Position numbers and translations under genes: made by a program. This document shows positions 1-64,000 of a DNA stretch of 64,000 nucleotides, in pieces. The notes under the pieces were generated by a model. It ran no database searches. It was not told the DNA's origin and saw only the letters and a list, made by a program, of their open reading frames with translations. The first letter of the stretch is position 1. Every line of letters starts with the position of its first letter. Source of the stretch: an uncultured Gemmatimonadaceae bacterium (GTDB taxonomy: Bacteria; Gemmatimonadota; Gemmatimonadetes; Gemmatimonadales; Gemmatimonadaceae); assembly GCA_963829055.1 (NCBI GenBank), contig CAWHHI010000016.1, forward strand, positions 96,001 through 160,000. Reading direction: 5' to 3'.

Positions 1-929
1 CAGAAGTCCGACGGACTCGCGATGAGTCGCTGCTGCCCCTGCGCGAGTGTGAACGGCGTTGCACTCGGCGTGAATGGCTGCGACTTGGGGAGGCTGCCGT
101 TGCCGCCGACCGTGACGTCCACGTTGATGTTCTGCGCCGGCTTGCAGTTCTGGTTAGGCACGACGATCTGGAGCGACGTCGGTGTGGCCGCTGTGACTGA
201 CGCGGTCACGCCGCCAATGCGGACGACATTCGCGTCGGCGGTCGCGCCGAACTTCGTGCCCGTGATCGTCGCGGGCTGTCCTTCGACCAGAGTGCTTGGC
301 GTTATGGTAGCGATCTGAGGAGCGTCGGCCGGATTTCCCGCGATGACCGTGACCTGGACCGTCCCGGTCTTGGCTTCAGACGTCGCTGTGATCGTGGCGG
401 TTCCCCCAGCAACGGCGGTAACGACTCCGGCGCCCGACACGGTTGCGATGGCCTGATCGCTCGTGCTCCACGTGACGGTGCGGCCAGTGACCACCGTGTT
501 GCTGGCATCGCGTGTCACCGCGGTCGCCTGTGTGGTCTGGCCGGCCTGCAAGGTCGTCGCGGTAGCGGTCACCGTTACGGTCGCCACCGGAGGCGCCACG
601 ATGGTGACCGTCGCGGTGCCGGTTTTTCCTTCGATAGTCGCGGTGATCGTCGCGCCGCCCGGCGACACGCCGGTCACTACGCCCGCGTTGCTCACGGTGG
701 CGATAGCCTGGCTCGACGTGGTCCAAGCGACTTTGCGATTCGTGAGCGTGTTGCCCTTCGCGTCCTTCGCGGTCGCCGTGAGCTGCGCGGTTTGCCCAAC
801 GATGACATTTCCAGCGGGCGCCGGGACGTTCACCGTGGCGACCGCGGGAGGTCCGGACGAATCACCGCTGCAGGCGACGAACGCGACCGTAAGCAGCGAG
901 ACGAGCGCGAGCCGGGTGCGAGTAGTCAT
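1..929 (-). CDS. Surface lipoprotein with two bacterial Ig-like (Big_2) repeats and an IPT/TIG-like domain; 3' end runs off the window
   Basis: Manual minus-strand translation from ATG 929: MTTRTRLALVSLLTVAFVAC (lipobox), then two Thr/Val-rich repeats with W(T/S)TSxQAIATVSxAGVVTxVxxGxATITAT. Absent from the ORF track because there is no stop in the window. Confidence 0.85.
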   Translation of the reverse strand, partial: MTTRTRLALVSLLTVAFVACSGDSSGPPAVATVNVPAPAGNVIVGQTAQLTATAKDAKGNTLTNRKVAWTTSSQAIATVSNAGVVTGVSPGGATITATIEGKTGTATVTIVAPPVATVTVTATATTLQAGQTTQATAVTRDASNTVVTGRTVTWSTSDQAIATVSGAGVVTAVAGGTATITATSEAKTGTVQVTVIAGNPADAPQIATITPSTLVEGQPATITGTKFGATADANVVRIGGVTASVTAATPTSLQIVVPNQNCKPAQNINVDVTVGGNGSLPKSQPFTPSATPFTLAQGQQRLIASPSDF

Positions 930-1096
930 GATTTTCCTGCGAAGGCGGTGCGAACCGCGCCACCCCTGCGGCAGCGCTCGTCGAACATATGGATCGACGC
1001 GCAGTCGGCAAAGGGTACGAACGGTGAACTACCTTGGTCGTGCGGTGTGAGGCGCGTTCGCGACCGCCGAGTGCGCCGCCGACCGCCGCCGATGCG

Positions 1097-1102
1097 TATA
1101 AT
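1097..1102 (+). promoter_or_regulatory. Putative sigma70 -10 box (TATAAT) for the aminotransferase
   Basis: Exact TATAAT about 35 nt upstream of GTG 1137, with a GGAGG RBS between them. Confidence 0.5.
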
Positions 1103-1136
1103 TCCAGACCCACTCCACCCGACCCGGAGGACGCAC

Positions 1137-2530: not shown

Positions 2531-5459
2531 ATGTCTCAGCACGTGACGCGAACTGCACGCACGCTGGCGACCATGCTCCTCGTCGGCGCCGGGGCGGCGT
2601 CGCTCGGAGCGCAGACCGCGACCGTCAGCGATGCGAATCGTCCCGCGGTGACGGCGACGTCGCCCGCAGCACTCAAGCAACTCGATCCGGCCGACCTCGC
2701 GTTCTGGAAGAACGTGCGGTTCACGGCGCTGTCGAACGACGGAAAGTGGTTCGCGTACCAGCTGACGCCTAACGAAGGTGACGCCGAGGTCGTGGTGCGG
2801 CCGACCGCTGAAGGCGAAGAGCGTCGCTTCAAGATCGGGGAGCCGCCTCCGCCGGCTGGCGGGTTCGGCGGCGGCGGGAACACATCCGTCGTGATCTCCG
2901 ACGATGGCAAGTGGCTCGGCTTCTTCAAGTACCCGACCGCAGCCGACGCGAAGAAGCTGCGCAAGGATAAGAAACCGGTGCAGAGTGGCGTCGTCGTGGT
3001 GAATCTCGCGACGGGCGAGACGCGCGAGTTCGACAAGATGCGCCGCTTCTCGTTCGCGCCGAAGCAGTCGAACTGGCTCGCGATCCAGCGTTATGCGGCC
3101 GAAGGTGCGCCGGCGGGTGCGGGCGCGGATCTCCTGCTCGTTGACGTACGTACCGGAACCGTGACGAGTATCGGCAACGTCGGCGAGTTCGCGTTCGACG
3201 ACGCCGGAACGCGCCTCGCCTGGACCATCGAGGGGCGTGATCTGGTCGGCAACGGCGTGCAGGTGCGCGATCTCAAAACCGATGTCGTCCGCGTGCTGGA
3301 CAGCGACAAGGCGCTCTACCGTCGCCTCACGTGGGCCGACAGCGGCCTCGCGCTCGCCGTTCTTCGCGGTCGCCCCGACAGCGCCGCCGCCGACACCGCG
3401 TACTCGGTGCTCGGCTACGCTGGTTTCACGCCGGCGATGAAGGCAGTCGTCTTCACGCCGACCGACACCGGCGGCTTTCCGAGCGGCCTTCGCATTGCCC
3501 CGGATCGTGCGCCGCGCTGGGCGGGGGATCGGTCGGCCATCTACTTCGGCATTGCCCCGCGTCGTACGGCGCCCGAGAGCAAGACACCTCGTCCGGACGT
3601 TAAGCCGGTGGCGGGGATTCCAGGTGCCATGCAGGCGACGGGACGTGGCGTCGGAGAGGAAGACGAGCTCCCGTCGCTCGTCATCTGGCACGGGAAGGAT
3701 CCGCGCCTCCAGTCGCAGCAGCAGGTGGAGGAGACGCGGGACAAGCAGTTCAGCTTCCTCGCGGAGTATCGCGTCGCCGATCGCAAATTCGTGCGCCTCG
3801 GCACCGACGAGATGCGTGACGTCACGCTCGCACCTAACGAGCGCTGGGCGATCGCGTCCGACGTGCGTGGTTACGAGCGCGCCGGAAACATCGACGGCAT
3901 GCGCTACCACGACGTCTACGCCATCGATACGCGCACGGGTGAGCGCAAGCTGGCCGTGAAGAAAACGCCCAACCGTGAATTCCCGTCGCCGGACGGATCG
4001 CGCTTCCTCTATTTCGATGACGGGCAGTACCGCGTCTACGATATGGCCGCGGGAACATCGCGAGTCATCACAGCGGGCGTCGCCCGTGTCGTTCGTCGAC
4101 ACAGAGGACGATCATAACGTCGATCGCCCACCCGTCGCGCCGATGGGCTGGTCCAGGGACGGGAGCGCGGTGCTGCTCTCCGATAACTGGGACGTGTGGC
4201 GCGTTCCGGTGAACGGGTCGGGCAAGGCCGTGAACCTGACGGGGAACGGCCGCGCGACCGGCGTTCGCTACCAGCGTCGCGTCGTCATCGATCCGCAGGA
4301 ACGCGGCGTCGATCTCTCGAAGCCGTTCTACATCTCGACGTACGGCGAGCGCACGAAGAAGGAAGGTCTCGCGCTCGTGAATCCCGCGAAGCCAGGCGCG
4401 ACGTCGCTCGTGTGGGACGACGCGAAGTACGCGTTCGCGCGTGCCCGTGACGCGGACACGTGGGTGTTCACGCGCCAGACCGTGAAGGACTACCCGGACT
4501 ACTGGGTCACGAACGCGACGTTCGGTTCACCGCGTCGCCTGACGACGGCGAACCCGCAGCAGAGCCAGTACGCGTGGTCGAGCGGCGCGCGGCTCGTGGA
4601 CTACGTGACGGACAAGGGCGACTCGCTGCAGGGCGCGCTGTACCTGCCGGCGAACTACGAGCCGGGCAAGAAGTACCCGACCGTCGTCTACATCTACGAG
4701 AAGCGCTCCCAGTTCCTGCACAGCTACAGTCAGCCTAACGAGACGCAGGCGTTCAACGCCAGCGTGTACACGAGCCGAGGGTATGCGGTGTTCCAGCCGG
4801 ACATCGTGTACAAGGTGAACGACCCGGGCATGTCGGCCGTGTGGGCCGTCGTACCGGCGGTGAAGGCCGCGATCAAGACGGGTATCGTGGACTCGGCGAA
4901 CGTGGCGCTGCACGGCCACTCGTGGGGCGGCTACCAGACGGCGTTCCTCGTCACGCAGACGAACATCTTCAAGAGCGCCATTGCCGGCGCCGCGCTCACC
5001 GACATGGTGAGCATGTACAGCTCCGTGTACTGGAACACGGGGAGCGGCAACGCGCCGATCTTCGAGAGCAGCCAGGGACGATTCAAGGGCAACTTCCTCG
5101 AGAACTACGACGCCTACATCCGGAACTCGCCCGCGTTCCACGCCGACAAGATCAAGACGCCGCTGCTCCTGCTGCATAACGAGCACGACGGCGCCGTCGA
5201 CTTCAACCAGGGCATCACGTTCTTCAACACGCTGCGCGAGCTCGGCAAGGATGTCGTGCTGCTGCAGTACGTCGGCGAGAACCACGGCCTCGCGCAGCCG
5301 AAGAACATGAAGGACTACACGATTCGCATGCGTGAGTACTTCGACTACTATCTCAAGGGCGAGCCCGCGCCCGAGTGGCTCAAGGACGGTATTCCACGTC
5401 TCAAGATGGAGGAGCATCTCAAGTCGCGGCAGAAGAAAGTGGAGAAGATAGCGTCTTGA
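2531..5459 (+). CDS. Secreted S9 (prolyl oligopeptidase family) peptidase; one frameshift near 4085
   Basis: Signal peptide, beta-propeller-like N-terminal region, GHSWGG nucleophile motif, DGAV and ENHG catalytic motifs. Joins ORFs 2081..4117 and 3975..5459. Confidence 0.9.
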
Positions 5460-6645
5460 GATCGCGCACTTACGGTTCAGGTATTTGCGTTGGCGTGGCG
5501 CTAATGGCCGTCGTGATGGCTGGTACGGATGCGGGCGCGCAGGCGCCTAACGGCCGGGCGCGGGCGCGCGACCTGGGTGTCGCGCCCGGCATCTTCAAGC
5601 CGGGCGCGAACAACGCGATCACCGACGTGTCCGGTGTGCTCGTCGGCCAGACGACGGTGACCGACGGCGACTCCGTCCACACGGGCATCACCGCGATCCG
5701 CGCGCACGGGGGCAATCAGTATCTCGATCGCGTGCCGGCGGCCGTGCACGTCGGCAACGCGTTCGGGAAGCTCGTTGGCAGCACCCAGGTGAAGGAGCTC
5801 GGCGAGCTCGAGACGCCGATCCTGCTCACGTGTACGCTGTGCGTGTGGAAGGCGGCCGACGCGATGGTCGAATGGATGATCGCGCAGCCGGGCATGGAGC
5901 GTGTCGGCTCGCTCAATCCCGTGGTCGGCGAGACGAATGACGGCGGACTGAACGCGATTCGCTCGCGGCCGATTCGCCCGAGCACGTGCGCGCGGCGCTC
6001 GATGGCGCGAAGAGCGGCCCAGTCGCCGAGGGTAGCGTTGGTGCTGGGGCAGGGACGCAGGCGTTCGGCTGGAAGGGCGGCATCGGCACGTCGTCACGCG
6101 TCGTGCCGAAGTCGCTCGGCGGCTACACGGTCGGCGTGCTCGTGCAGTCGAACTTCGGTGGGATTCTGCAAGTGCTCGGCGCCCCGGTCGGAAAGGAGCT
6201 CGGGCGGTACGCGTTCAAGAACGAGATGGACCGCGAGCGCGGCGACGGCTCGATCATGATGGTGGTCGCCACGGATGCGCCGATCTCCGACCGGAATCTC
6301 GAACGACTCGCGGCGCGAGCGATGATGGGACTGGGTCGCACGGGGTCCTCGGCGTCGAACGGGTCGGGCGACTTCGTGATCGCATTCTCGACGGCGGCGT
6401 CGGTGCGTCGTCGCCTAACGCCAGCCGCCCCGGGCACGCCTGAGCCGTTGACGCGGCAGACCGAGGACCTCACGAACGACGCGATGTCGGGCTTGTTCGA
6501 GGCCGTCGTCGAGGCGACGGAGGAGTCGATCTACAACTCGCTGTTCATGGCGACGCCGGTGACCGCCCGCGGCCGCACGGTGGACGCGATTCCGCTGGAT
6601 CGCGTGCGAGACGTGCTGAAGAAATACAACGTCGGCAGTCGCTGA
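5456..6645 (+). CDS. P1/S58 family DmpA-like L-aminopeptidase/D-esterase; frameshift near 5980
   Basis: RARDLG, NAITDV, GNAFGK, EGSVGAGAG, KGGIGTSSR, DGSI autocleavage site, NGSGD. TTG start overlaps the upstream TGA. Confidence 0.9.
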
Positions 6646-6699
6646 GTCGTGCCGCTCGGTCTGCGCACGCGGTTGCTCAACGGCGAACAGCGCCGGGCG

Positions 6700-6912
6700 A
6701 CCATCTGAACACTGATGGGGCGAGCGGAGCAGCCGAATCGAAGCGGATTGATTCCTGATGCGGTGGCATGTGAGCTACAGCCAGCGGAATTTCGAGGGGC
6801 ATTGCTGCGCGGCATAAGTGTCGTCCCTCGTCGCTAGCGCTCCTCGGGATGACAACGGAGTCAATCCGCTTGAATCCGAGCGAATCCGTTCGCCCGCGTT
6901 CGTCTGAGGATG
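6700..6912. repeat. Imperfect ~55-bp inverted repeat pair (6700-6755, 6857-6912) enclosing a REP half-site (6823-6853)
   Basis: AAGCGGATTGATTCC pairs with GGAGTCAATCCGCTT. A third copy lies at 25039-25092. Confidence 0.7.
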
Positions 6913-6941
6913 CCGGTACGGTTGTCGCATAGCCAGATAGC

Positions 6942-7586
6942 ATGAAGAAACATCAGATGCTGCCAATGGCACTCATTGGCGCGGGGCTCGGTGCCGCCGC
7001 GGGATTCGCGCTGCTCTCGCGCTCCGTGAAGAAGCACAACACCCGTCAGATCGACGGACGCGCGCGCAAGAAGGCCCTCGAGCGGCGCCGCCGCTCCACG
7101 AAGATGCTCGCGAAAGGCATCGGGCCACTCGGCAAGTGGTGGGGGCAGACGCCGATCGCCGCGCTGGTCACGGCCCTCGTGTGGCGCCGGCGCGGACGCT
7201 ATGCCGCGTTGCCGATCGCCGGAGCGTCGGCCAGCGCCGCCGCCCTCGCCTGGGTGCTCGAGCGCGCCATGTTCCAGCGGCGACCGCCTCCGGGGCGTCA
7301 TTCGCCGACCGAGCCCGCGTTCCCGAGTGGACACGCATTGCAAACCTCGGCTGTCGCGTGGACGGCCGCGTACGTGCTGCTGCGCGAGCGCGCCGTTCCG
7401 AGATCCGCGATGCTACCGCTCGCCGTGCTGCTGCCCGCCGCCAGTGGTCTCGCGAAATTGCACCTCGATGGCCACTGGCTCACGGATGTCCTCGGTGGAT
7501 ATTTGGTGGGCGCCGCGATCGCGGCTCCAGCCGCCGCGGGGTACGAGATGGCACGACCGCGCCGGCGTCGTTTCGCCACTCACTGA
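6942..7586 (+). CDS. PAP2 family membrane phosphatase
   Basis: RRP, FPSGHA and HWLTDVLGG motifs with hydrophobic segments. Confidence 0.85.
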   Translation: MKKHQMLPMALIGAGLGAAAGFALLSRSVKKHNTRQIDGRARKKALERRRRSTKMLAKGIGPLGKWWGQTPIAALVTALVWRRRGRYAALPIAGASASAAALAWVLERAMFQRRPPPGRHSPTEPAFPSGHALQTSAVAWTAAYVLLRERAVPRSAMLPLAVLLPAASGLAKLHLDGHWLTDVLGGYLVGAAIAAPAAAGYEMARPRRRRFATH

Positions 7587-7593
7587 GGTCTCC

Positions 7594-8978
7594 ATGCACG
7601 TTCGCTCGTCCATATCGGCGGTCCTCCTGACCGCCGCCGTTCTCGCACGTCCGCTCGCCGCGCAGACCGTCGCCGACCGGTATCGCGCCGACGCCAATCG
7701 CATCATCGACGCAGCCCTCAAGGACAGCACGGCCTGGAACCGGTTGGGCGAGATGACCGAGAAATTCGGCAATCGCCTGAGCGGGACGCCGGCGCTCGAG
7801 CAGACGATCGATTGGGTGATCGCGAAGATGAAGGCCGACGGGCTTCAGAACGTCCGCGGCGAGCGCGTGATGGTGCCGGTCTGGGTTCGTGGCGCCGAGT
7901 CGGCTCAGCTCGTGAGCCCACGCGTGCAGAACATGCCCATGCTGGGACTCGGTGGAAGCATCGCGACCCCGCCCGGTGGCGTCACCGCGGACGTGTTCGT
8001 CGTCAGCAGCTTCAGCGAGCTGACGGCGAAGGCGTCGCAGGCCGCCGGCAAGATCGTGCTCTTCGACGTCCCGTTCACCAGCTACGGAGAGACGGTCCAG
8101 TATCGCGCGCGTGGCGCGGTCGCCGCGGCGCAGGCCGGCGCAGTCGCCGCGCTCGTCCGCTCCGTCACGCCGTTCTCGATGCGTACGCCGCACACCGGCG
8201 GCATGTTCTACGACTCGACCGTTAGGCGCATCCCCACGGCCGCGATCACGGTCGAGGATGCGCGAGATGCTGCATCGCATGCAGGATCGCGGCGAGCGCA
8301 TCCGCGTGAAGCTCCTCATGTCCGCGCACACACTGCCTGACGCGCCGTCACGCAACGTGATGGGCGAGATCGTCGGGTCCGAGAAGCCCGACGAGGTCGT
8401 GGTGTTCGGCGGCCACATCGACTCGTGGGACGTCGGTCGCGGCGCGATGGACGACGGTGGCGGCGTCGTGGTCGCGTGGGAGGCGGTGAAGCTCCTCCAG
8501 CGTCTTGGCCTCAAGCCGCGTCGCACGATCCGCGTCGTCGGATGGACGAACGAGGAGAATGGCGGACGTGGTGGGCAGGGGTACCGGGACGCGCACAAGG
8601 CCGACATCGACAAGCACATGCTGGCCATCGAGTCCGACGGCGGCGTGTTCAAGCCGCAGGGCTTCAGCTTCTCTGGTTCGGATGCGGCGCTCGAGATCGT
8701 GAAGCAGATCGCGACGCTGCTCGATCGTATCGAAGCCGGCGCGATCGTGAAGGGCGGCGCCGGATCGGACGTTGCGCCCGATCAACGCGCTCGGGGTGCC
8801 CGGCCTGGGGCTCAACGTCGACGGCACCAAGTATTTCTGGTATCACCACACCGAAGCCGACACGATCGAGAAGCTCGACGCGCACGAGATGGCGCTCTGC
8901 GTGGCGACAATGGCCGTCATGGCGTACGTCGTGGCGGACATGCCGGAGCCACTGCCGCGCGCAGCCGCGACGCCGTGA
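7594..8978 (+). CDS. Secreted M28 peptidase (carboxypeptidase Q-like); frameshifts near 8260 and 8775
   Basis: Signal peptide, GGHIDSWDVGRGAMDDGGG, NEENG, ESDGG, YHHTEADT, spread across three frames. Confidence 0.9.
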
Positions 8979-9161
8979 CGCTCGGGACCGCCGCGCCGCG
9001 AGCCCATCGCTTGCGGCGCGGCTGGCGTCGGTTCAGCTTCTACCCAGGGAACGGTTGCGCCGCCAAGCATTGGCGCACACGCCGCAGTGCAAGGGAACGA
9101 GGCGATTATCACGGACGGCGAGCGGGTGCCTGGATGGCAACACTGCCGCTGCGGAGGACAC

Positions 9162-9380
9162 ATGTCGAAGCAAGGTGCTATCGAGATGGAGGGGAAGGTC
9201 GCGGAAGTGCTGCCGAACGCGACGTTCCGGGTGACGGTGAATGGCGGCCACGACGTGCTCACGACGCTCGGCGGTAAGATGCGGCAGAACCGCATTCGTG
9301 TCCTCGCCGGCGATCACGTGACCATCGAGGTCTCGCCGTACGATCTCTCGCGCGGTCGCATCACGTACCGCCACAAGTAG
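9162..9380 (+). CDS. infA: Translation initiation factor IF-1
   Basis: [24 protein letters not shown]...[41 protein letters not shown]. Confidence 0.97.
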
Positions 9381-9427
9381 ACGTCGCCTAACGCCGGTCC
9401 GGATGCGTCAGTGCGCGTCGGCACGTC

Positions 9428-9577
9428 TCAGCGGCGTTGCACGCGCCCGGCGACGAGGATGAGCGTCGCCACGAGCGACACCAGTGCGATGACGCTCGTG
9501 AGCACGAGCGCCGTGATGCGCACCGCGAGCTGCCCGCGACCGCTGCGCGCGATCACCACGCGGACGCGGCTGAACAT
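9428..9577 (-). CDS. Small 49-aa single-TM protein
   Basis: Manual translation MFSRVRVVIARSGRGQLAVRITALVLTSVIALVSLVATLILVAGRVQRR*. High-GC3 codons; lies just downstream of the hydrolase on the same strand. Confidence 0.55.
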   Translation of the reverse strand: MFSRVRVVIARSGRGQLAVRITALVLTSVIALVSLVATLILVAGRVQRR

Positions 9578-9603
9578 CACGGCAGCCGATTCCTGCCCGG
9601 GCG

Positions 9604-10608
9604 TCAATTTCGAGGAGCGGCCGGCGCGGCCAATGGCACCGTGACGCTCGCGAAGCTCCGCTGGCCCGGACCTGCATAACGCGCATCGTCCAGACGCACC
9701 GTCGTCGAATCACCAACGGTGAGATCCGCGAACGGAAAGCGCGACCACGACAGGAACCGACGACCATCAGGCGTCGCTCGCGCGGCCGCTGTGATCTCGG
9801 GGGTGATCTTCGGAATTCGCTCCGGCAATGCTTCGTATCGCGGACCTGGCCACCACGTAAGCCGGCCCCGTTCGTAGGAACCGCCCACATCGCGGACGAC
9901 GCTGCGAGTGAACGGCGTCACCGCATCCGGCGCGACCATCACGCGGTCGGCGGCCGAACCACCAGCGGCGACTGCCTGTCGCTCGACGAGCACTCGCCCG
10001 ATCCAGCTCGACCCCGCCATGATCGCGATGTACGTGGCGACCGCGAACACCGCAATGCGCGCGGGGCGGTGCACTCTCGCCATTACCGTCGGCGATGCGG
10101 CGCCTACAGGAACCGCGCGCGCGCGTTGGAGCGAAACGAACGAGCCGACGCCGAGTACGACCCAGACCGACGGGTCGACGATGAAGAGCGTGTCGCCGTA
10201 GAACCAGCGCGACGAGAACGGCATGAGGAGTCGCACGCCGTACGTATTGAGGAGATCGAACAGCGGGTGCGTCCAGATGGAGATGGCCGCCAGCACCAGG
10301 AGTTGTGATGGAATGACCGGCGTACCGACTGGTCGACGCCTTCGCGCGCGACGCGCGTCGCGCGCCTGACCGACCCAGATCATCATGACCGTCAGCAGCA
10401 CCGGCAGGACCACCATCGCGACGACGCCGTGCGTCCACCCGCGGCGGAACTCGAGCGCCGCTGCTCCGCCGCGCACGACGTAGACGATCGCGTCGACATC
10501 GGGCAGATTCGCGCCGATGATCATCGTCGCGGTCGCGAGCCCGGTGCGACGGCGGAATCCCGCGCCCGACAGTGCGGCACCAACGAGCGAGTGGCAGAGG
10601 TTGTCCAC
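9604..10608 (-). CDS. Membrane-bound metal-dependent hydrolase (YdjM-like)
   Basis: MDNLCHSLVG, ANLPDVD, RGWTHG, HPLFDLLNTYG motifs. Confidence 0.85.
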   Translation of the reverse strand: MDNLCHSLVGAALSGAGFRRRTGLATATMIIGANLPDVDAIVYVVRGGAAALEFRRGWTHGVVAMVVLPVLLTVMMIWVGQARDARRARRRRPVGTPVIPSQLLVLAAISIWTHPLFDLLNTYGVRLLMPFSSRWFYGDTLFIVDPSVWVVLGVGSFVSLQRARAVPVGAASPTVMARVHRPARIAVFAVATYIAIMAGSSWIGRVLVERQAVAAGGSAADRVMVAPDAVTPFTRSVVRDVGGSYERGRLTWWPGPRYEALPERIPKITPEITAAARATPDGRRFLSWSRFPFADLTVGDSTTVRLDDARYAGPGQRSFASVTVPLAAPAAPRN

Positions 10609-10782
10609 GAAGTCGGGTTGAAGTGAGCGAACAACCTATGCACCTCGGCGAGCGGCGGCAAACGTCGTCGTCGCGCGGCTGTCGACCGCGGTGGCCCGCG
10701 GTCCTAACGTTCGCCTGTGATGGGTCGGCGGACTCCTCCGGCGCGCACGTTAGGCCTTCATGTCAGGCAAGCGACGTGATGA

Positions 10783-12108
<1,326 letters not shown>

Positions 12109-12192
12109 GCGGGGCGGAGTAGATGTGAGGGTCAGCAGACGATCCTTCCGAGCCCCATTCTATCGACAGAGCGCCCGTGGCGCACGCCAGTT

Positions 12193-12372
12193 GTCATTCC
12201 GAGCGGGGGTGTCATTCCGAGCGAGGCCGCAGGCCGCAGGTGCCCTCTGGGCGCATGAGGAATCGCGATCGTCCCGATAGTGGGCCGTCTTCACGGACGA
12301 CAGTCGCGATTCCTCGACTCCGCCGCTCCGCGGCTCCGCTCGGAATGACAGTGACACCCCGCTCGGAATGAC
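12193..12372. repeat. REP-like nested palindrome, GTCATTCCGAGCG ... CGCTCGGAATGAC family
   Basis: Left arms at 12193 and 12211, right arms at 12337 and 12360; inner GAGGAATCGCGA/TCGCGATTCCTC stem. Confidence 0.85.
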
Positions 12373-12376
12373 AGCC

Positions 12377-50414: not shown

Positions 50415-50421
50415 ACCACAT

Positions 50422-52124: not shown

Positions 52125-52152
52125 TCACTTCGCCCTCGAAGGAGGTATCACG

Positions 52153-52632
52153 ATGGCAATGTCCACATCGATCAGGGGGCGGCGTAAAAGCCGAACCGAA
52201 CGTGACGCCGATGATCGACGTCATGCTCGTCCTCCTGATCATCTTCATGATCGTGATTCCGACCATCAGCGCCGGCTTCAATGCGCAGCCGCCGCAGGGG
52301 GTCAACCTGAAGCCGCATCCTGAAGAGGACCAGGATCAGGTCCTCGGCATCGCGGCCGACGGCCAGTACTACCTCAACAAGTCGCCGATCAAGAACGAGA
52401 CGTTGGCCGAGAAGCTCAAGGCGATCTACGACGCCCGCACGGTCGACAAGATCCTGTACGTCAAGGCCGACAAGAATCTCGAGTACGTCAAGGTCATCGA
52501 CGCCCTCGACATCGCGGCCACAGCACGGCGTTCGCGTGACCGGTCTCATCTCCGATCAGCGGCCAGGGACGATGTCCACCGTGGCTGGTGATAACCTGAT
52601 GGCGCCGGCCAAAGAAGGAGGGAAAGCCCTAA
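52153..52632 (+). CDS. exbD: ExbD/TolR protein 1; indels near 52170, 52525 and the 3' end
   Basis: EPNVTPMIDVMLVLLIIFM, VKADKNLEY; GGAGG RBS. Confidence 0.82.
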
Positions 52633-53064
52633 TGGCCATGTCTCCTGGCAGCGGCGGCGGTGGTCTGACGAACGACATCAACGTCACGCCCATGATCGAC
52701 GTGCTCCTCGTGCTCCTGATCATCTTCATGATGGTCGTGCCGATGGCGCGCAAGGCAATCGACATTCAGTTGCCGGATCCGAACCCGGCGGTCGCTCCGG
52801 CGAACGCCGTGTCGCAACAGATCGTGCTCGAAGTCCTGCCTAACGGCGTGTACCAGATCAACAAGCAGGAGCCGTTGACGAAAGACAACCTCATGGGCCG
52901 GCTCAAGGAGCTGTACGATCCGCGCCCCGAGAAGCTGATCTTCATCAAGGGCGATCCGGCCGTGAAGTATCAGGACGTGATCTTCGCGATGGACATGGCG
53001 CGGCAGGCAGGCGTCAAGGTCATTGGTGTGCCGCCAAAGGATAAGTCGGCCCCGAGCGAAGTAA
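52632..53064 (+). CDS. exbD: ExbD/TolR protein 2; stop shifted by a probable indel near 53055
   Basis: INVTPMIDVLLVLLIIFM, IKGDPAVKY; TAA at 53062 followed by a terminator. Confidence 0.82.
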
Positions 53065-53099
53065 GCGGCAAGCCGGCTCAGCCGGGCGAAAGAATTCGG

Positions 53100-53143
53100 T
53101 ACGGCGGAAGAACCCTTTTGGGTGCTTCCGCCGTATTAATTTC
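53100..53143 (+). terminator. Rho-independent terminator-like hairpin
   Basis: TACGGCGGAAGAACCC-TTTT-GGGTGCTTCCGCCGTA followed by TTAATTT. Confidence 0.65.
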
Positions 53144-53150
53144 ACCCGTG

Positions 53151-54009
53151 ATGTACCCCCCGATGAACGAGCCACTCGCCGAATCGAAGCCCAGGCGGCC
53201 TCGCTACCGTCCTCCGATCGGAATCCCGATCCGCGAGGAGGGGAAGACGACTGGTGCCCTGGTTTCCATAGCGCTTCACGCGCTCATTCTCCTGCTGCTG
53301 CTCGCGCCGCCGTTCCTCCTCGCGCGCGAGATGCAGGTACGCAATGAGGGCGCGGGTGGCCCGGGCCCCGCTGGCGGCGGTGGAGGCGGATCGCGTGGCA
53401 CTGGCGGCGATCAGAAGGTGCAGGAGCGCGTGCGCTTCATTCAGGTGGCACCGGCGCCGGCCCCTGCTGTCGTCACGCCCAAGGTCGAGCCCAAGCCCGT
53501 CCCAGTCGTTCCGAAGGTCGAGCCGCCAAAGCCGAAGCCGCCCGAACCGGTGACGCCGGCGCCTGAGATCAAGCCAGAGCCAGCACCGGCCGGCGAGTGC
53601 GGTTCCAAGCAAGGTTGCTGGTGTGGGCGGCGGCACTGGCAACGATGGCACCGCGGGCAGCGGCTCTGGAAGCGGCGGCGGCATCGGTTCCGGGATCGGT
53701 ACCGGGAAAGGATCCGGCAACGGTCCGGGCACAGGCGGGGGCGACGCGCAGATCTTCCCGCCTACGGTCATCGCGCTGACGATCCTTCCGATTCCCGTTC
53801 CCTCGAAGGTTCGGCCCTACACGCTCGTGGCTACCTTCGATGTCGACACGCTCGGAAACGCGACGCTGCTGGCGTTCAATCCGTCCAAGGACGGCGGCTA
53901 CAACAAGCGTATTCGCGAGATGCTGTCGGAGATCCGCTTCCGGCCCGCTGTTCGCGGCGATGGCCGGCCGGTTCGAGACACCGCGCAGATCTCTGCCGCC
54001 GCGCCGTAG
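53151..54009 (+). CDS. TonB/TolA-like membrane-anchored Pro/Gly-rich protein; frameshift near 53595
   Basis: SIALH TM box, Pro/Lys- and Gly-rich linker, C-terminal FDVD...FRPAV. Confidence 0.7.
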
Positions 54010-54251
54010 CACGCTAGCACGAGCTGCTGCGTAGATGTGTTGATAGCAGCCGAGGCAGGCCCTATAGCAAGAATCGCCTGCTATCGACATCTCGAACGCG
54101 TTCAGCCAGTCGAGGCGTAACTTGGCCTCCCGCCTACGTCTGGCTATAGCGGGCCCGCGCGGATACATTTTGCGCGGCAAACCGCTCCGATCGTCCCGGC
54201 TCGTCCTCCTCGCCGGCGACTCGTTCATTCCGCGCCGCCTGAGGTCAGTTG

Positions 54252-55744
54252 ATGAGCACTGTGGCCGCCGAGACCACTGCGCCCAAGGCGCAGCCAGAAC
54301 AATCTGGTTTCGTGAAGGCCATGACGTTGACCGATGCGACGATGCTCGTCGCCGGTTCAATGATTGGCTCCGGCATCTTCATCGTTTCCGCCGACATCGC
54401 GCGGTCGCTGCCGTCGCCGTTCTGGCTTCTCGTTGCATGGCTCGTCACCGGCGTTATGACGTTGCTCGGGGCGCTCGCCTATGGTGAGCTCGCGGCCATG
54501 TTTCCGCGAGCTGGCGGTCAGTACGTGTTCTTGCGCGAGTCGATGGGTCCTCTCATGGGTTTCCTCTATGGGTGGACCCTTTTTCTGGTCATCCAGACGG
54601 GAACCATCGCCGCCGTCGCCGTCGCGTTCGGCCGCTTTCTTGGCGTGTCTGATTCCGGCGATCGGACCGGATCGGTACGCGTGGTTTCCGCACTTCGACT
54701 TCGCGATCTCGGGTGGTACCGCGGAGCTCGGACTCTCGCCGCAACGGCTCGTTGCGCTCGTCTCGATCTGGGTGCTGACCTGGATCAATCTTCGCGGCGT
54801 TCGCGAAGGCAAGATGGTGCAGACGACGCTCACGGTCGTGAAGACCGCGGCGTTGGCGTTGCTCATTCTGCTCGGCATCACGATCGGCCGAAACGCCGAC
54901 GCGATCGCGGCGAACTTCGGCGCCCGGTCGCTTCGTCGGGTCGATCCCGCTCGACTCCGTGCTCGTGCTGACGTTCGGCGCGGCGCTCGTCGGTTCGCTC
55001 TTCTCGAGCGACGCCTGGAACAACGTCACGTTCGCTGCGGCCGAGGTGAAGAACCCGCAACGCAACCTGCCGCTCGCGCTGCTTCTCGGCACAGGGCTCG
55101 TGAGCCTGCTCTACGTGCTCGCGAATGTGGCGTACCTGAATACGCTGCCACTCGCCGGAACGGCGGATGGCGCGACCGTCATCGCGCGCGGCATGCAGCA
55201 CGCGACGCAGGACCGTGTCGGCACGGCCGCGGCTGAGGTGATCTTCGGCTCGAGTGGGACGATCCTCATGGCGTGCGCGATTCTCATCTCGACGTTCGGC
55301 TGCAACAACGGGCTGATCCTCGCCGGTGCCCGTGTCTACTGGGCCATGGCGCGCGACGGACTGTTCTTCCGGCGCGTAGGAACGCTGAACGCGAAGTCCG
55401 TCCCCTCGGCGGGGCTGATCGTGCAGTCCGTGTGGGTGTCGCTGCTCTGCCTAACGGGCACGTACAATCAGCTGCTGAACTACGTCATCTTCGCGGCGCT
55501 CGTGTTCTACGTCCTGACGACGCTCGGGCTGTTCCTGTTGCGGGCGCAGCGCCCGAACGCCGAGCGGCCGTATCGCGCGGTCGGGTATCCCGTGCTGCCC
55601 GCGCTCTACATCGTGCTCGCCGCCGTGACGGCCGTGATTCTGTTGATCGCGCCGAAGACGCGCACCGAGGCGCTGTCCGGTCTCGTGCTCGTGCTCATTG
55701 GTATCCCCGTGTACTTCATCTGGCGCCGCGTGGAAGCGTCGTAG
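54252..55744 (+). CDS. APC family amino acid permease; frameshifts near 54645 and 54925
   Basis: GSMIGSGIF, YGELAAMFPRAGGQY, AEVKNPQRNLP, ARVYWAMARDG, RPYRAVGYP. Confidence 0.88.
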
Positions 55745-55866
55745 TCGCGCCAGCACACCGATCGCGTCACCCGGATGTGCGGGCGGCGTGTTCGTCTCGA
55801 GGTCGGCCATTCGGGTGCATCGACCGCGCCCACGCCGTCCCGCAACCCCCCAGGAGATCGTTATCG

Positions 55867-58405
55867 ATGAACCGGAAGGACACCCTGTTCCGCAATCTGC
55901 TCCCCGTCGGACTCGCCATGCTTCTCGCCCTCGTGGCGGGACCGCTTGCGCGCCCTCTCTTCGCGCAGGCTGCGCCCGCTGCCCAGGGTGAGTCTCGCCC
56001 GGGTGGTGAGGCCAACCTGCTGATCCCCGATCTCGGAAGCGTGCAGTTCTTCGGCCTTCCCGGGAACACGCTGCTGACCTTCGGACTCATCGTCTGCGCG
56101 CTCGGATTGTTGTTCGGTCTCGTGATCTACAGCCGCCTCAAGCGCCTGCCGGTTCACGAGTCCATGCGCGACATCTCCGAGCTGATCTACGAGACGTGCA
56201 AGACGTATCTCACGACGCAGGGGAAGTTCATTCTCGTGCTCTGGGTGTTCATCGGGTCGATCGTCGCGGTGTACTTCGGTACGTTGGCCGAGACGACCGA
56301 CGCGACGGGAGCAGCGGTGCGCGGATTCCCGCCGGTGAAGGTCGCGGTAATTCTGCTGTTCAGCCTCGTCGGCATCGCGGGCAGCTACGGTGTCGCCTGG
56401 TTCGGCATTCGCGTGAACACGTTCGCGAACTCGCGGACGGCGTTCGCCAGTCTCCGCGGAAAGCCGTTCCCGTGCTACGAGATTCCGCTCAGCGCCGGAA
56501 TGAGCATCGGCATGCTGCTGATCAGCGTCGAGCTCGTGCTCATGTTGATCATCCTGCTGTTCATTCCGCGTGACTATGCGGGCCCGTGCTTCATCGGCTT
56601 CGCGATCGGCGAATCGTTAGGTGCGGCCGCCCTGCGAGTCGCGGGTGGTATCTTCACGAAGATCGCCGACATCGGCGCCGACCTCATGAAGATCGTCTTC
56701 AAGATCAAGGAAGACGATGCCCGAAACCCTGGCGTCATCGCGGACTGCGTCGGCGACAATGCCGGTGACTCGGTCGGCCCGAGCGCGGACGGCTTCGAGA
56801 CCTACGGCGTGACGGGCGTCGCGCTCATCTCGTTCATCCTGCTCGCGGTCAATCCCGCGTCGGCGGGTCCGAACTTCGAGACGATCCAGGTACAGTTGCT
56901 CGTCTGGATCTTCATCATGCGCATCATGATGGTGATCGCGAGCGGCGCGTCGTATCTCATTAACGCCGCGATCGCCAAGGGTCGCTACGCGAACGCCGAC
57001 AAGATGAACTTCGAGGCGCCGCTCACGGTGCTCGTGTGGCTGACGTCGATCGTGTCCGTCGTGTTCACGTACATCGTGTCGTACTACACGATCCCGACGT
57101 TAGGTGACGGCTCGCTCTGGTGGAAGCTGTCGACGGTGATCACGTGCGGTACGCTCGCCGGCGCGATCATCCCGGAGTTCGTGAAGGTCTTCACGTCGAC
57201 CGAGAGCGCGCACACGCGCGAAGTCGTCACGTCGTCCCGTGAAGGCGGCCCGTCGCTCAACATTCTCTCCGGCCTCGTCGCCGGAAACTTCAGCGCGTTC
57301 TGGCTCGGCATGACGATCATGGCGCTCATGGCCATCGCGTACATCGTCAGCACGTTCGGCCTCTCTCAACTGATGGTCGCGCCGGCGGTGTTCGCGTTCG
57401 GACTCGTTGCGTTCGGCTTCCTCGGTATGGGTCCGGTGACGATCGCCGTCGACTCGTACGGCCCGGTGACGGACAACGCACAGTCGGTCTACGAGCTCTC
57501 GACGATCGAGCAGATCCCGGGTGCGCGCGAGCAGGTGAAGAAGGAATTCGGCTTCGACGTGGACTTCGAGAAGGCGAAGCACTTCCTCGAGGAGAACGAC
57601 GGAGCGGGCAACACGTTCAAGGCGACCGCGAAGCCGGTGCTCATCGGTACCGCCGTCGTCGGCGCCACGACCATGATCTTCTCGATCATCGTCGGTCTGA
57701 CACAGGGACTCAAGCCCGAGTTCCTCCCGAACCTGTCGATCCTTCACCCGCCGTTCCTGCTCGGTCTCATCACCGGCGGGTCGATCATCTACTGGTTCAC
57801 CGGCGCGTCGATCCAGGCCGTGACCACCGGTGCGTACCGCGCGGTGGAGTTCATCAAGGCGAACATCCGACTCGCAGGATACGAACAAGGCCTCCGTCGA
57901 GGACTCGAAGAAGGTCGTCGCGATCTGCACGCAGTACGCGCAGAAGGGCATGTTCAACATCTTCCTCGTCGTGTTCTTCGCGACGCTCGCGTTCGCATTC
58001 GTGGAACCCTACTTCTTCATCGGGTATCTCGTCTCGATCGCCGTGTTCGGACTGTACCAGGCGGTGTTCATGGCCAACGCCGGCGGTGCCTGGGACAACG
58101 CCAAGAAGATCGTCGAGGTGGAGCTCAAGGAGAAAGGGACGCCCCTGCACGACGCAACCGTGGTCGGTGACACGGTCGGCGACCCATTCAAGGACACGTC
58201 CTCTGTCGCGCTGAATCCGATCATCAAGTTCACGACGCTGTTCGGACTGCTCGCCGTGGAATTGGCGGTCTCGCTCAGGGCGGAACGCGGACCGATGCTG
58301 GGCCACATTCTCGCTGGGGTCTTCCTCCTCGCGGCGCTGATCTTCGTGCACCGGTCGTTCTACGGCATGCGCATTCAGTCTCAGGCGAAGGTGTCCGCCC
58401 GTTGA
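55867..58405 (+). CDS. hppA: Membrane-bound ion-translocating pyrophosphatase; frameshift near 57875
   Basis: GGIFTKIADIGADLMK, EDDARNPGVIADCVGDNAGD, YGPVTDNA, GNTFKA, GGAWDNAKK, GDTVGDPFKDTS. Confidence 0.92.
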
Positions 58406-58435
58406 TGACGTCCCACTCCTCACTCTGATCAGCGA

Positions 58436-59993
58436 ATGGCGACGTCCATTTTCGCTCGCAAATCGGTAGCCGATGCCGAACGCGAGATGTCGCATGCCGG
58501 TACGGGCCTCAAGCGCTCGCTCGGCAAGTGGCATCTCACCGCGCTCGGTGTCGGCGCGACGATCGGTGCCGGGATCTTCGCGACAACCGGCACCGCTATC
58601 GTCGGTGATCCCGCGCGGCCCGGCGCTGGTCCGGCGATCGTGTTCTCGTTCCTGCTCACTGCCGTTGCGTGCGGCTTCGCGGCGCTGTGCTACGCGGAGT
58701 TCGCGGCGATGGTGCCGATCGCCGGGTCTGCGTACACGTACGCCTACACGTCGATCGGCGAGTTCGTCGCGTGGATCATCGGATGGGATCTCATCGTCGA
58801 GTACGCGGTCGGCAACATTGGTGTCGCCATCGGATGGGCCGCGTACTTCCGTGAGTTGCTGACGCACTTCGGAATCAGCATGCCGGCGTGGCTCTCGACG
58901 GACTATCGCTCCGCCCACGACGCGTTTGTCGCCCTCGCCGGGGGCGCGAACGATCCAACAACACAGTATCTCGCGTCCGCGTGGTCCGCGGCGCCGCATC
59001 TCGGAAGCATTCCGGTCATCTTCAATCTGCCGGCGTTTGCCGTCGTTGCGCTGCTCACGGTCATCCTGGTGATTGGCATCAAGGAATCGGCGAACTCGAA
59101 CAACGCGATGGTGCTCCTCAAGATCGGGATCATCATCTTCTTCCTGTGCGTTGGCGCATTCCTGATCAAGCCGGGCAATTACACGAATCCTGCAACGGGC
59201 GGCTTCGCGCCTAACGGGTTCAAGGGCATCAGCGCCGCGCGCCGCGATCATCTTCTTCAGTTACATCGGATTCGACGCCGTATCGACAGCCGCCGAGGAA
59301 GCGAAGGATCCGGCGCGCGACATGCCGTTCGGCATCATCATGAGTCTCATCATCTGTACGGTGCTGTACATCCTGCTGTCTATTGTCATGACGGGTATCG
59401 CCCCGTGGCAGCAGCTTGGAACACCGGAGCCGATGATCACGGCGTTGCAGTTCGCGCAGGGGCCACCGGCACTCCTGAAATTCTCCCGGTTCATCATCGC
59501 GCTCGGTGCCGTGGCCGCCATGGGCAGCGTGCTGCTTGTGTTCCAGATGGGCCAGCCGCGCATCTTCTTCTCGATGGCGCGCGACGGTCTGCTTCCCAAG
59601 GTGTTCGCGAAGGTGCACCCGAAGTACCAGACGCCGTACGTGGGAACGATCCTTACCGGACTGTTCGTCGCGACGTTTGCCGCGTTCGCGAACATCGCCG
59701 AAGTGGTCGATCTCACGAACATCGGAACGCTGTTCGCGTTCGTGTTGGTGTCGGCGGGTGTGATCTTCCTTCGTCGGTCAGAGCCGGACCGGGTGCGGCC
59801 GTTCCGGGTACCTGGTGTACCGTTCACGCCGCTGATCTCCATTGCCGCGTGTCTGTACTTGATGGCTCAGTTGCCGACGGTCACGTGGATCCGGTTCGGG
59901 ATCTGGCTCGCGGTCGGGCTCGTATTTTATTTCGCGTATGGGTACAAGAACTCGGTGCTACGGCATCGGCGGTCGCGCAGCCCTTCTGCGTGA
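58436..59993 (+). CDS. APC (cationic amino acid transporter-like) permease; frameshift near 59240
   Basis: GATIGAGIF, CYAEFA, GSAYTY, YIGFDAV, EEAKDP, PRIFFSMARDGLLP. Confidence 0.9.
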
Positions 59994-61682: not shown

Positions 61683-63068
61683 ATGCGTGAGCTCTTCGTC
61701 CAGGCGAGCTACCTCCTCGCCTCTGTCTTTTTCATACTCGGCCTCAAGAGCCTGAGTCGCGCCGAGACGGCCTCGCGTGGCGTTACGCTCGCCGCGATCG
61801 GGATGCTGATCGCGATCGTCGGTACGCTGATGCAGCAGGTGATCATCGACTACCGCTGGATCGCGTTAGGCCTCACCGTCGGTACCGTGATCGGCGTTCC
61901 GCTGGGTACGCGCGTGCCGATGACCGCGATGCCGCAGCGTATCGCGATCGCGCTCACGTTCGGTGCGCTCGCGGCGACGCTCGTCGGCATCGCTGAGTTT
62001 CATGATCATGCCGACACGATGGCGTTCGGGCAGCGGATCGCTGTCGCGTTCGAGGTGGTGCTTGGCGCACTCACGGTGGCGGGCAGCTTCGTCGCGTTCG
62101 GCAAGCTGCAGGAAATCTTGCCAGGGCGTCCGCTGACGTATCGCGGTCAGAACGCCGTGAACTTCGTCCTGCTCGGCGTGCTCGTGTTGATGCTGGGCGC
62201 GGTCGTCGCCGGCGTCGGCGGTCTGACGCTGTTCTATGGGCTCATCGCACTGGCGTTCCTCGCCGGCGTGATGCTCGTGATGCCCATCGGCGGCGCGGAC
62301 ATGCCCGTGGTGGTCGCGTTGCTCAACTCGTACTCCGGACTCGCGTCGGCGGCCACCGGTTTCGCGATCTCGAACAACGTGCTCATCGTGTCGGGTGCTC
62401 TCGACGGCACGTCGGGATTCCTGCTCTCGATGCTCATGAGCAAGGCGATGAACCGCTCGTTCGCGAACGTGTTGTTCGGTGCGTTCGGATCGCAGGCGCC
62501 AGCTGGCGCGGCGGCCGCCGGCGGCAGTGATCTGGTCGCGACCGCCATCTCCGCGGAGGACGCGGCGGTCCAACTCGCGTACGCGAGCAACGTCGTGGTC
62601 GTCCCGGGCTACGGGATGGCGGTAGCGCAGGCGCAGCATCAGGTGCGCGAGCTCGCGGAGCTCATCGAGAAGCGAGGCGGAGAAGTTCGCTACGCGATTC
62701 ATCCAGTGGCCGGGCGAATGCCTGGTCACATGAACGTGCTGCTCGCGGAAGCGAACATCCCGTACGACAAGCTCTATGACATGGACGAGATCAACGGCGA
62801 CCTGTCGCGCGCAGACGTCGCGTTGATCATCGGCGCGAACGACGTGGTGAATCCAGCGGCGCGAACGGATCCTACGTCACCGATCTACGGGATGCCGATC
62901 CTCAACGTCGATGAAGCGAAGAGCGTGATCGTGCTCAAGCGCGGCATGAGCGTCGGATTCGCGGGCATCGACAACATGCTGTTCTACCAGCCGCGAACGC
63001 GGATGCTCTTCGGCGATGCGAAGGCGTCACTCGTGAAGCTCGTGACGGAGATCAAGGCGCTGTCCTGA
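61683..63068 (+). CDS. pntB: NAD(P) transhydrogenase beta subunit
   Basis: MTAMPQ, IGGADMPVV, NSYSG, AMNRS, VPGYGMAVAQAQH, HPVAGRMPGHMNVLLAEA, GANDVVNP. Confidence 0.96.
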   Translation: MRELFVQASYLLASVFFILGLKSLSRAETASRGVTLAAIGMLIAIVGTLMQQVIIDYRWIALGLTVGTVIGVPLGTRVPMTAMPQRIAIALTFGALAATLVGIAEFHDHADTMAFGQRIAVAFEVVLGALTVAGSFVAFGKLQEILPGRPLTYRGQNAVNFVLLGVLVLMLGAVVAGVGGLTLFYGLIALAFLAGVMLVMPIGGADMPVVVALLNSYSGLASAATGFAISNNVLIVSGALDGTSGFLLSMLMSKAMNRSFANVLFGAFGSQAPAGAAAAGGSDLVATAISAEDAAVQLAYASNVVVVPGYGMAVAQAQHQVRELAELIEKRGGEVRYAIHPVAGRMPGHMNVLLAEANIPYDKLYDMDEINGDLSRADVALIIGANDVVNPAARTDPTSPIYGMPILNVDEAKSVIVLKRGMSVGFAGIDNMLFYQPRTRMLFGDAKASLVKLVTEIKALS

Positions 63069-63244
63069 CGGACGCGGAAGGCGGCGGGCGGACGGCGGAC
63101 GGCGATTTGTCATCCCGAGTGACAGCGAGGGACCTTCCGTGAGGTATTGTGGCCAGCCTGGCCACGATACTTCACGCAAGGTCCCTCGCTGTCCTCGGGA
63201 TGACACGGCTCGCCGTCCGCCTTCCTCCCTCCGCCTTCCGCGGC
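63069..63244. repeat. Long REP-type hairpin (GTCATCCCGAG...CTCGGGATGAC) with GGCGGAC/GGCGGAA-like flanks between convergent genes
   Basis: Arms 63109-63119 and 63194-63204; inner GACAGCGAGGGACCTT / AAGGTCCCTCGCTGTC stem. Confidence 0.85.
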
Positions 63245-63245
63245 G

Positions 63246-64000
63246 TTAGGCTGAGGCCACCCCCAGGAACCGCAACGCGCCGCGGACCGCCCCGCGAACC
63301 GGCACGACTTCCTCGGCGCGAATCTGCGCGCCCGGGACAGCCGACTTGAGGCGGTGCTCCAACCGCTTTCGGAGCGCGGAGCCGCGAATCATCAACCCGC
63401 CCGCGAGTGCCACCGGAACCGCCGCGCGCTCGTCCACGAAGAGCTGACGGGCAAGCGTGCGAAGGTGGAGCATGAGCTCCTCCACCGAGAGCGTCAGCAG
63501 TGCGTTGGCTCGCAGGTCGCCTGAATCGGCCACGCTCATCACCACCGGTGCGAGCGTCGCCAGCGTGCTCGGTGTCGCGGCCGCAGCCCACGCGACGAGC
63601 TCGGACACGTCGTTCACTTCGGCCGCGGTCAGGACTGCGCCAGTGAGCGCCGTTTCGGGTTCTCGGCCGTCCGCCGCCGCTGTCACGACGCTCAGCGCCT
63701 TTCGTCCGATCCACGCCCCGCTGCCTTCGTCACCGAAGAACGGGCCCCACCCGCCGCAGCGCGCGAAGTTGCCGGTCGGGCCACGCCCGAACGCGACTGA
63801 TCCCGTGCCGGCGATCAGCAACACGCCAGGCCCTTCGCCGAACGCGTCGTCGAGCGCGACCGTCGCGTCGGCGTGAACCACCACCTCTTCGGCGACGTCG
63901 CGGCTCGCCAGTGCGCGCCAGAGCGCCTGACGCTCCGTGTCGCGACCGACGCCCGCCACGCCGATGCAGACGACTTTCGGTGTGACGTGATTCATGTCGC
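63246..64000 (-). CDS. BadF/BadG/BcrA/BcrD-type N-acetylglucosamine/N-acetylmuramate kinase; 5' end outside the window
   Basis: GVAG, DA, LIAGTGS, GGWGPFFGDEGSGAWIG, LAGGL. Confidence 0.85.
   Translation of the reverse strand, partial: DMNHVTPKVVCIGVAGVGRDTERQALWRALASRDVAEEVVVHADATVALDDAFGEGPGVLLIAGTGSVAFGRGPTGNFARCGGWGPFFGDEGSGAWIGRKALSVVTAAADGREPETALTGAVLTAAEVNDVSELVAWAAAATPSTLATLAPVVMSVADSGDLRANALLTLSVEELMLHLRTLARQLFVDERAAVPVALAGGLMIRGSALRKRLEHRLKSAVPGAQIRAEEVVPVRGAVRGALRFLGVASA

Follow-up and report, generated by a model that had tools for sequence, protein, structure and literature searches.

Short DNA words that tag DNA for uptake are established in two host-associated proteobacterial families, as the uptake signal sequence (USS) of Pasteurellaceae and the DNA uptake sequence (DUS) of Neisseriaceae, where ComP is the DUS receptor. 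The function of another abundant word, the highly iterated palindrome HIP1 of cyanobacteria, has been open for three decades. Here, a dispersed word was analysed in a 64,000-nucleotide stretch of DNA (hereafter the window; GenBank assembly GCA_963829055.1, contig CAWHHI010000016.1, positions 96,001 to 160,000) from an uncultured Gemmatimonadaceae bacterium. The word is the non-palindromic octamer CGTTAGGC, written thousands of times into the genes and spacers of this soil bacterium (genome G000) and of some of its relatives.

The octamer resembles DUS and USS in being a short non-palindromic word present about once per kb on both strands beyond codon effects, in its origin by point mutation, conservation above background, fit into codons and apparent thinning in constrained DNA, and in a host that carries type IV pilus and Com genes, which are found here in motif-poor genomes as well. 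It differs in its unrelated sequence, its phylum, its soil habitat and the lack of a receptor among the genes found, in being known here from sequence alone, in having one consensus across three families, and in lacking terminator pairs, with close pairs depleted where those of USS are clustered. Like HIP1, it is an abundant octamer that is spread by substitution, conserved above controls, patchy within its lineage and open in function; unlike HIP1, it is not a palindrome, is tracked by no methyltransferase among those compared and shows short-range exclusion rather than a periodicity of 10–100 kb. With Chi (RecBCD/AddAB) and the FtsK-orienting polar sequences (KOPS) it shares an eight-base, non-palindromic, over-represented and genome-wide word, but not replichore polarity; its density is 0.9 per kb, and AddAB was not found in several motif-rich genomes. 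Finally, the last seven letters of the octamer fit the R box of integron attC sites (consensus GTTRRRY), and the octamer forms the ends of attC hairpins both in relatives and in an array of G000, whereas the 7,000 dispersed copies are solitary and intragenic, with no inverted partner, L box or hairpin. The tag works like DUS/USS or HIP1 yet fails a defining feature of each, and is a variant rather than a member.

No earlier description of the motif was found among the open-licence PMC and bioRxiv papers listed by literature searches, one of which, a whole-word search, would miss the word inside longer strings; subscription papers, REBASE and bioRxiv supplements, which lie outside this scope, may hold methylation motifs of the phylum. 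A tag of similar density is now seen in a soil phylum that is itself abundant. Within one order it varies from absence to 1,250 copies per Mb, and this range offers a natural series for phylogenetic profiling of reader genes and for testing molecular drive against selection.

Enrichment and placement of the octamer

The hexamer core was found at 51 sites in the window, 32 as GTTAGG and 19 as CCTAAC. At 44 of the 51 it formed the heptamer CGTTAGG/CCTAACG, for which an order-2 Markov model predicts 1.9 copies. C was present at position +6 in 39 of the 51 sites, and the consensus was therefore taken as the octamer. A preliminary description of the window had reported the hexamer and heptamer, and every coordinate, both strand counts and the heptamer share were reproduced; the motif is longer than it described, the C at +6 having been missed. 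The control hexamers it named (GTTAGC, GTTAAG and CTTAGG) occurred 2, 1 and 0 times on the forward strand. The codon frames it gave (Leu-Gly, Val-Arg, Leu-Thr and Pro-Asn) proved correct, as did its three stop-codon overlaps at 21774, 32190 and 63245, the latter two at gene ends. The copies were as follows.

153..63250, forward strand: hexamer core, 32 dispersed copies
Forward-strand starts: 153, 8221, 10749, 11401, 14471, 16863, 17766, 18429, 18597, 20299, 23285, 24577, 25147, 29172, 29367, 30163, 30382, 32604, 37629, 37969, 38316, 39854, 41172, 43175, 44183, 47036, 50635, 56616, 57099, 60021, 61865, 63245
2768..59215, reverse strand: hexamer core, 19 dispersed copies
Reverse-strand starts, in forward coordinates: 2768, 3833, 4734, 5546, 6414, 9387, 10703, 14252, 20452, 21774, 25500, 32190, 33906, 34221, 37222, 39255, 52839, 55450, 59210

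Across the G000 assembly (7.78 Mb, 20 contigs, 86 % complete), 7,103 hexamers and 5,004 octamers were counted against order-2 Markov expectations of 512 and 102 respectively, with a density of 0.91 per kb overall and 0.75–1.22 per kb across all 20 contigs. Genes were called by a custom dicodon model, under which some genes were missed and frameshifted ones split. The 5,335 confident genes contained 4,180 hexamers, compared with 393–437 in three synonymous shuffles and 73 under a null built from codons outside the motif (57-fold); the same null gave 19.5 octamers against 2,983 observed. Sense (2,260) and antisense (1,920) copies were both enriched. The hexamer excess under codon-aware nulls was 10- to 57-fold. 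The preliminary description is supported in its view that the pressure acts on the DNA, on both strands and genome-wide.

The hexamer accounted for 1,772 of 2,529 TTA codons (70 %), 718 of 3,342 CTA codons and 488 of 5,011 AGG codons, and overlapped 247 of 683 TAA and 178 of 1,389 TAG stop codons. Under the codon null the core tolerated only two changes, one at core position 5 (G-to-T, 10-fold) and one at core position 3 (T-to-C, 2.7-fold), and flank preference was graded on both sides, in the order C > T > A > G at −1 and C > T > G > A at +6. The same flank preferences were observed at 275 intergenic sites, with C at −2 disfavoured, and no flank information was detected more than about 4 bases from the motif.

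The strand distribution was determined on contig C16, with the terminus set by GC skew and a dif-like site at 560.8–560.9 kb. A polar signal of the Chi or KOPS type, or an artefact of sequencing or codon bias, is a very improbable account of the word, being contradicted by the results. In its favour, 54 % of the copies on C16 lie on the leading strand (518 versus 439 lagging), and G000 contains many frameshifts. The small skew, however, follows gene direction, and on C16 a KOPS-type control word showed marked polarity (42 to 3, then 10 to 62), in agreement with the earlier reading of the motif as non-polar and not Chi or KOPS. AddAB-type nucleases were matched in 18 of 41 genomes, and PF12705 (AddAB) was not found in G014, G120, G192 or G130, which are 92–100 % complete; the word is also absent from the dif arms, and XerCD was rejected as its reader. 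The closest relatives, whose contigs have short-read assembler names, carry 2–6 heptamers per 10 kb, which refutes base-calling error, and the excess survives codon-aware nulls. As the same word is enriched in 15 of 40 relatives and in 11 of 200 genomes of the phylum, all of one order, it is no artefact. GC skew peaks at the dif-like site (C16:560790-560820), which has xerD nearby; one parS-like site was located on C3, at C3:501482.

Neighbouring copies were separated by gaps of less than 100 bp in 214 of 7,083 cases, against 623 expected, and close pairs were depleted in all four orientations, inverted pairs included. The pair correlation was 0.30 at 10–50 bp and 0.56 at 150–200 bp and reached 1.0 from 500 bp, a short-range depletion of pairs below approximately 400 bp, whereas that of 25 abundance-matched control hexamers was never below 0.90. 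Close-pair depletion was repeated in G014 (25 gaps versus 50 expected, of 266). Counts were less variable than Poisson (variance/mean 0.76–0.87). Periodicity on the kb scale was absent, the autocorrelation being flat or decaying to 20 kb and 100 kb in a simpler test than the published HIP1 one, and copies were not markedly concentrated near the C16 terminus. Spacers had 1.96 copies per kb where the flanking genes converge, 1.4 where they run in tandem and 0.43 where they diverge. A ribosomal-protein cluster contained 10 copies in 15.3 kb (0.65 per kb), and the 23S gene none in 3 kb (chance ~0.07).

This placement could mark sites where an intracellular chromosome protein, such as a nucleoid organiser, topoisomerase loader or repair factor, binds or loads, with selection for a site every kb or so but none too close together or in promoters. 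The orientation-independent exclusion, the sub-Poisson counts, the avoidance of divergent promoter spacers and the presence of sites even in ribosomal-protein genes are all consistent with such a protein, as is the parallel with HIP1, for which PMC5861425 proposes a structural role on similar grounds. The lack of kb-scale periodicity and of marked terminus concentration speaks against it, no candidate protein was identified, and the continuous range of octamer densities, with most of the order unenriched, would be odd for a needed architectural site. We consider this explanation somewhat unlikely.

Origin and distribution among relatives

The differences between orthologous sites were found to be substitutions, reached along several routes of one or two steps. 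Among aligned cases, G000 sites were kept at 46 of 86 positions in G001, 28 of 74 in G004 and 15 of 44 in G014, nearly double the fractions for matched hexamers (0.28, 0.23 and 0.19 respectively), and the motif ranked in the top 4–9 % of hexamers for conservation, though not first. In the motif-poor G007, none of nine aligned G000 sites was present. Several sites are covered by public contigs of 98–99 % identity. All 40 of the differences listed lay outside the sites, an observation that counts for little beside the 556 further differences.

The word was enriched in 15 of 40 relatives, comprising all six congeners (2,501–5,112 octamers), G014 (6,360) and eight others (173–605), while the remaining 25 had at most 65 octamers each. 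Among 200 genomes of the phylum, at least 170 octamers were present in 11, all in one order, and the remainder had at most 96; by group, 6 of 38 genomes in f1 and 5 of 97 in f2 were rich, and neither the 3 in f3 nor the 62 genomes outside the order included any. These two samples share genomes, and kin within them are not independent; the unpublished genomes G013, G084, G123 and G202 contributed only low-count rows to the tallies of relatives, phylum genomes and IntI. Across the order, octamer density was continuous from about 40 to 1,250 per Mb, with most of the order lacking enrichment. The consensus was identical in all three families, and no other dialect was detected in 80 kb from each of five motif-poor genomes.

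The data show that the word is under positive pressure as double-stranded DNA, independently of strand and with diminishing returns at short range, and that scattered lineages have this pressure turned on to varying extents. The preliminary description had missed the patchy occurrence across three families, the short-range exclusion and the match to integron attC ends.

Two other repeats were observed in relatives. The strong words of the motif-poor G035 are intergenic tandem heptamer arrays. In G021 (L044-L047), a purine-rich word of 10–12 bases was about sevenfold enriched in 80 kb, with no tandem array in the scanned L045, and is possibly another repeat or tag.

Candidate readers and possible mechanisms

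The reading that we tentatively favour, at a little under an even chance, is that the octamer is an uptake-type tag spread by biased transformation; at the same strength, such a drive would explain the data with the fewest new parts. In some Gemmatimonadales, CGTTAGGC would then serve a sequence-specific protein as a recognition tag on double-stranded DNA, and tag-bearing fragments would be preferentially taken up or recombined during natural transformation. Point mutations creating the word would spread until limited by protein coding (molecular drive), and a second copy near an existing one would add little, such that close pairs would be thinned out. We infer that a protein reads the word and does so during uptake or recombination, and that these bacteria can be transformed. 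The economy of this reading lies in the precedent of USS, which according to PMC7811141 are spaced at ~1 kb, similar to the density here, and evolve by point mutation along several routes limited by coding. For USS, uptake is no greater with two copies within 100 bp of each other, which predicts saturation at short range. If the reading is true, it would imply self-biased gene exchange in soil and offer a route to transform a phylum with few genetic tools. Of the mechanisms left open in the preliminary description, we place uptake-type drive ahead of a chromosome-binding protein, and that in turn ahead of methylation. As for its proposal of an undescribed system, the motif is real and genome-wide, and as a system it stays unproven while no reader protein is in hand.

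Gene profiles were compared in hand-chosen sets of motif-rich and motif-poor genomes, and no reader gene was found in them: competence genes, IntI, AddAB, FtsK and a methyltransferase with its SNF2 helicase do not track the motif. G000 holds type IV pilus genes, comEA, comEC, DprA and ComM, and ComEA was matched in all five genomes. FtsK was matched in 40 of 41 genomes. An extra FtsK/TraB-like translocase was rejected as a candidate, a single copy being listed in 39 of 41 genomes, all save G000 and G111; the second ftsK copy of G000 sits in a foreign-looking contig end. Phage packaging was also rejected, Terminase_6N being present in only one of five motif-rich genomes.

Several observations weigh against an uptake tag. 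Competence genes are present in motif-poor genomes too (ComEC in 49 of 51, DprA in 20 of 20 and ComM in 40 of 41), and in the G000 assembly the frames of comEA and comM are interrupted, like those of several other genes; congeners have an intact comM. No sequence-specific uptake receptor was found among the genes searched. Seven pilin-type genes are present in G000, and neither of the two orphans searched tracks the motif beyond the genus; the orphan type IV pilin at G000:C11:105383-105809 (L224) has matches of 63–76 % identity in all six congeners and no close match in the other 48 genomes. The exclusion scale of 300–400 bp is short for usual transforming fragments. USS cluster, with 23 % within 100 bp and many as terminator pairs, whereas close pairs are depleted here, inverted ones included, and uptake drive does not explain the absence of terminator pairs. 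Finally, all of the features observed also fit selection for a chromosome-binding protein.

In a HIP1-like alternative, CCTAAC with its fifth base modified would be the adenine-methylation target of a type IIG/DrmMI-like methyltransferase with an SNF2 partner, and methylation would bias repair or integration of incoming DNA. Type IIG-type enzymes read asymmetric 6–7-mers with a penultimate A. An Eco57I/MmeI-like enzyme of this type (1,020–1,085 aa, NPPW intact), followed by a DrmD-like SNF2 helicase gene, was present in all five motif-rich genomes first tested. HIP1 provides a precedent, increasing transformation in a way that depends on methylation, according to PMC13756078. The pair was later found in 78 of 80 genomes, however, rich and poor alike. 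The methyltransferase is mostly single-copy, in a conserved housekeeping context and with invariant putative specificity motifs, and no column of its alignment tells the 7 rich representatives apart from the 44 poor loci, once 8 duplicate rows and 2 mis-extracted ones had been dropped and 16 unclassed loci and 1 intermediate set aside. Rich genomes fell in several places in its FastTree tree, with branch supports left aside. Methylation is ranked third because this sole candidate enzyme is common to rich and poor genomes, and we regard it as unlikely.

Other methyltransferases gave no better match to the motif. PF01555 was matched in 19 of 29 genomes and not found in G000, G001 or G004; PF01555, PF02384 and PF00145 had no match in the 86 % complete G000; and a D12 methyltransferase was found in four of five genomes and not in G014, the densest. 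The one methylome found for the phylum, from Gemmatirosa, whose motif density and methyltransferase copy were not checked, lists three N6-methyladenine motifs, none of which is the octamer word (PMC3974934). No signature of phylum methylation motifs was present among the 64 hexamers listed, and the PMC4752239 supplements have no Gemmatimonas entry. The methyltransferase–helicase pair looks like a domesticated defence module. Set against DISARM, in which drmA, drmB and drmC accompany drmMI and drmD, its DrmD match was far below the cut-off, and by eye its neighbours look like housekeeping genes. Its loci include G000:C8:73512-78317 (L120), where the G000 copy is frameshift-split, and L121:8099-13593.

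In motif-poor relatives, the copies listed cluster near contig ends at a spacing of ~550 bp, where they form the two ends of hairpins between single open reading frames (ORFs), i.e. attC cassette arrays (hairpin fold z −6.6 and −5.5). In 11 loci there were 69 hairpin candidates, not all of them genuine; the end word was the octamer in 32 and its T-flanked variant in 13, a tally biased toward the word by the selection of 8 of the 11 loci by motif. G000 has intI at C20:208041, with weaker attC-like sites upstream that carry the word at both ends (z −0.4 to −2.8); the attC link is drawn from the sites in these genomes. The chromosomal integron of G000 spans C20:119000-209000 (L087-L090), where attC-like sites that fold weakly lie to the 3′ side of a divergent intI. 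A second intI, which is partial, is present at C4:2853-3239 (L091). Large homogeneous cassette arrays are present in the motif-poor G027 and G025 (L001:1-20000, L003:1-8000 and L005:1-7200).

These arrays and the intI of G000 could suggest that IntI or an attC-serving factor reads the word: either single strands entering the cell would be recombined there by IntI, or uptake would be tuned to the ends of cassettes, and drive would then carry the attC end word across the chromosome. IntI acts on transforming single strands in Vibrio according to PMC12614218. Against this, 24 of 41 genomes had an IntI match above the cut-off, including many motif-poor ones, IntI does not track enrichment, and the motif-rich G004 has only two tyrosine recombinases. 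Inverted box pairs 45–150 bp apart are depleted genome-wide in G000, and such pairs folding into hairpins occur only in cassette arrays. Genome-wide, there is no enrichment of the attC variant that has A in core position 6 (0.46-fold), C at −2, common in attC ends of poor relatives, is disfavoured, and the sites are substitutions with no insertion scars. The dispersed chromosomal sites, which have neither partner box nor flank information, are not attC, and a role for IntI or an attC factor as reader appears quite improbable. A related and distinctly doubtful idea is that DNA uptake or recombination in some Gemmatimonadales is tuned to the integron cassette end word, harvesting cassette-bearing soil DNA, and that as a side effect drive wrote the attC end word over the chromosome. 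If true, an uptake-tag system would have arisen independently for a third time, and for the first time from a site of site-specific recombination.

Individual sites and minor features

Individual sites and their host genes in the window were compared with those of relatives.

30381..30388, forward strand: octamer in a Val-Arg frame, kept in 3/3 aligned congeners G001, G003 and G005 (~78 % nucleotide identity)
39853..39859, forward strand: site in putative actC, Ser-Leu-Gly via TTA, kept in G001, G003, G005 and G014
32603..32610, forward strand: G000-private site, Ala-Leu-Gly; six genomes compared, Leu being CTC in four relatives and CTG in one
21773..21780, reverse strand: site over the TAA stop of a 50-aa ORF (21626-21778)
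32189..32196, reverse strand: site over the stop of a TrmJ-family gene (31400-32194), kept in G001, G003 and G005
16114..18075, forward strand: speA (arginine decarboxylase), an ordinary host gene, with sites 16863 and 17766 as TTA-GGC
55867..58170, forward strand: membrane pyrophosphatase gene (PRK00733), a host gene, with sites 56616 and 57099

The site in putative actC is absent from the motif-poor G007, and the G000-private site arose by substitution without an indel. Of the host-gene names given in the preliminary description, speA and the hppA-type pyrophosphatase were confirmed, while actC is only an NrfD/DsrP-like match.

Several contig regions of G000 are void of the motif. The contig ends C6:6854-55038, C6:600000-623330 and C11:7377-44055 have foreign-looking housekeeping genes, shifted GC and the second ftsK, and are probably joins from other organisms, of assembly rather than transfer; motif density could act as a binning check for the Gemmatimonadales lineage of G000. 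Three motif-free gaps of 12–16 kb on C4 (804933-820719, 458374-471329 and 606307-618892) contain native-looking genes and represent either recent transfer from a motif-poor relative or a chimera.

In the window, a frameshift that probably reflects misassembly divides an amino-acid permease gene at 58436-60025 (frames 58436-60025 and 59322-59993). Short tandem arrays with a 7-base unit lie in the spacers at 2379-2409, 32232-32262, 34491-34522, 43415-43440, 63069-63104 and 63211-63241; such arrays are abundant in G035 (locus L063) and unrelated to the motif. An intergenic element of ~100 bp at 43340-43445 has dozens of matches on both strands of the congener G003, as in a repeat resembling repetitive extragenic palindromes or miniature inverted-repeat transposable elements.

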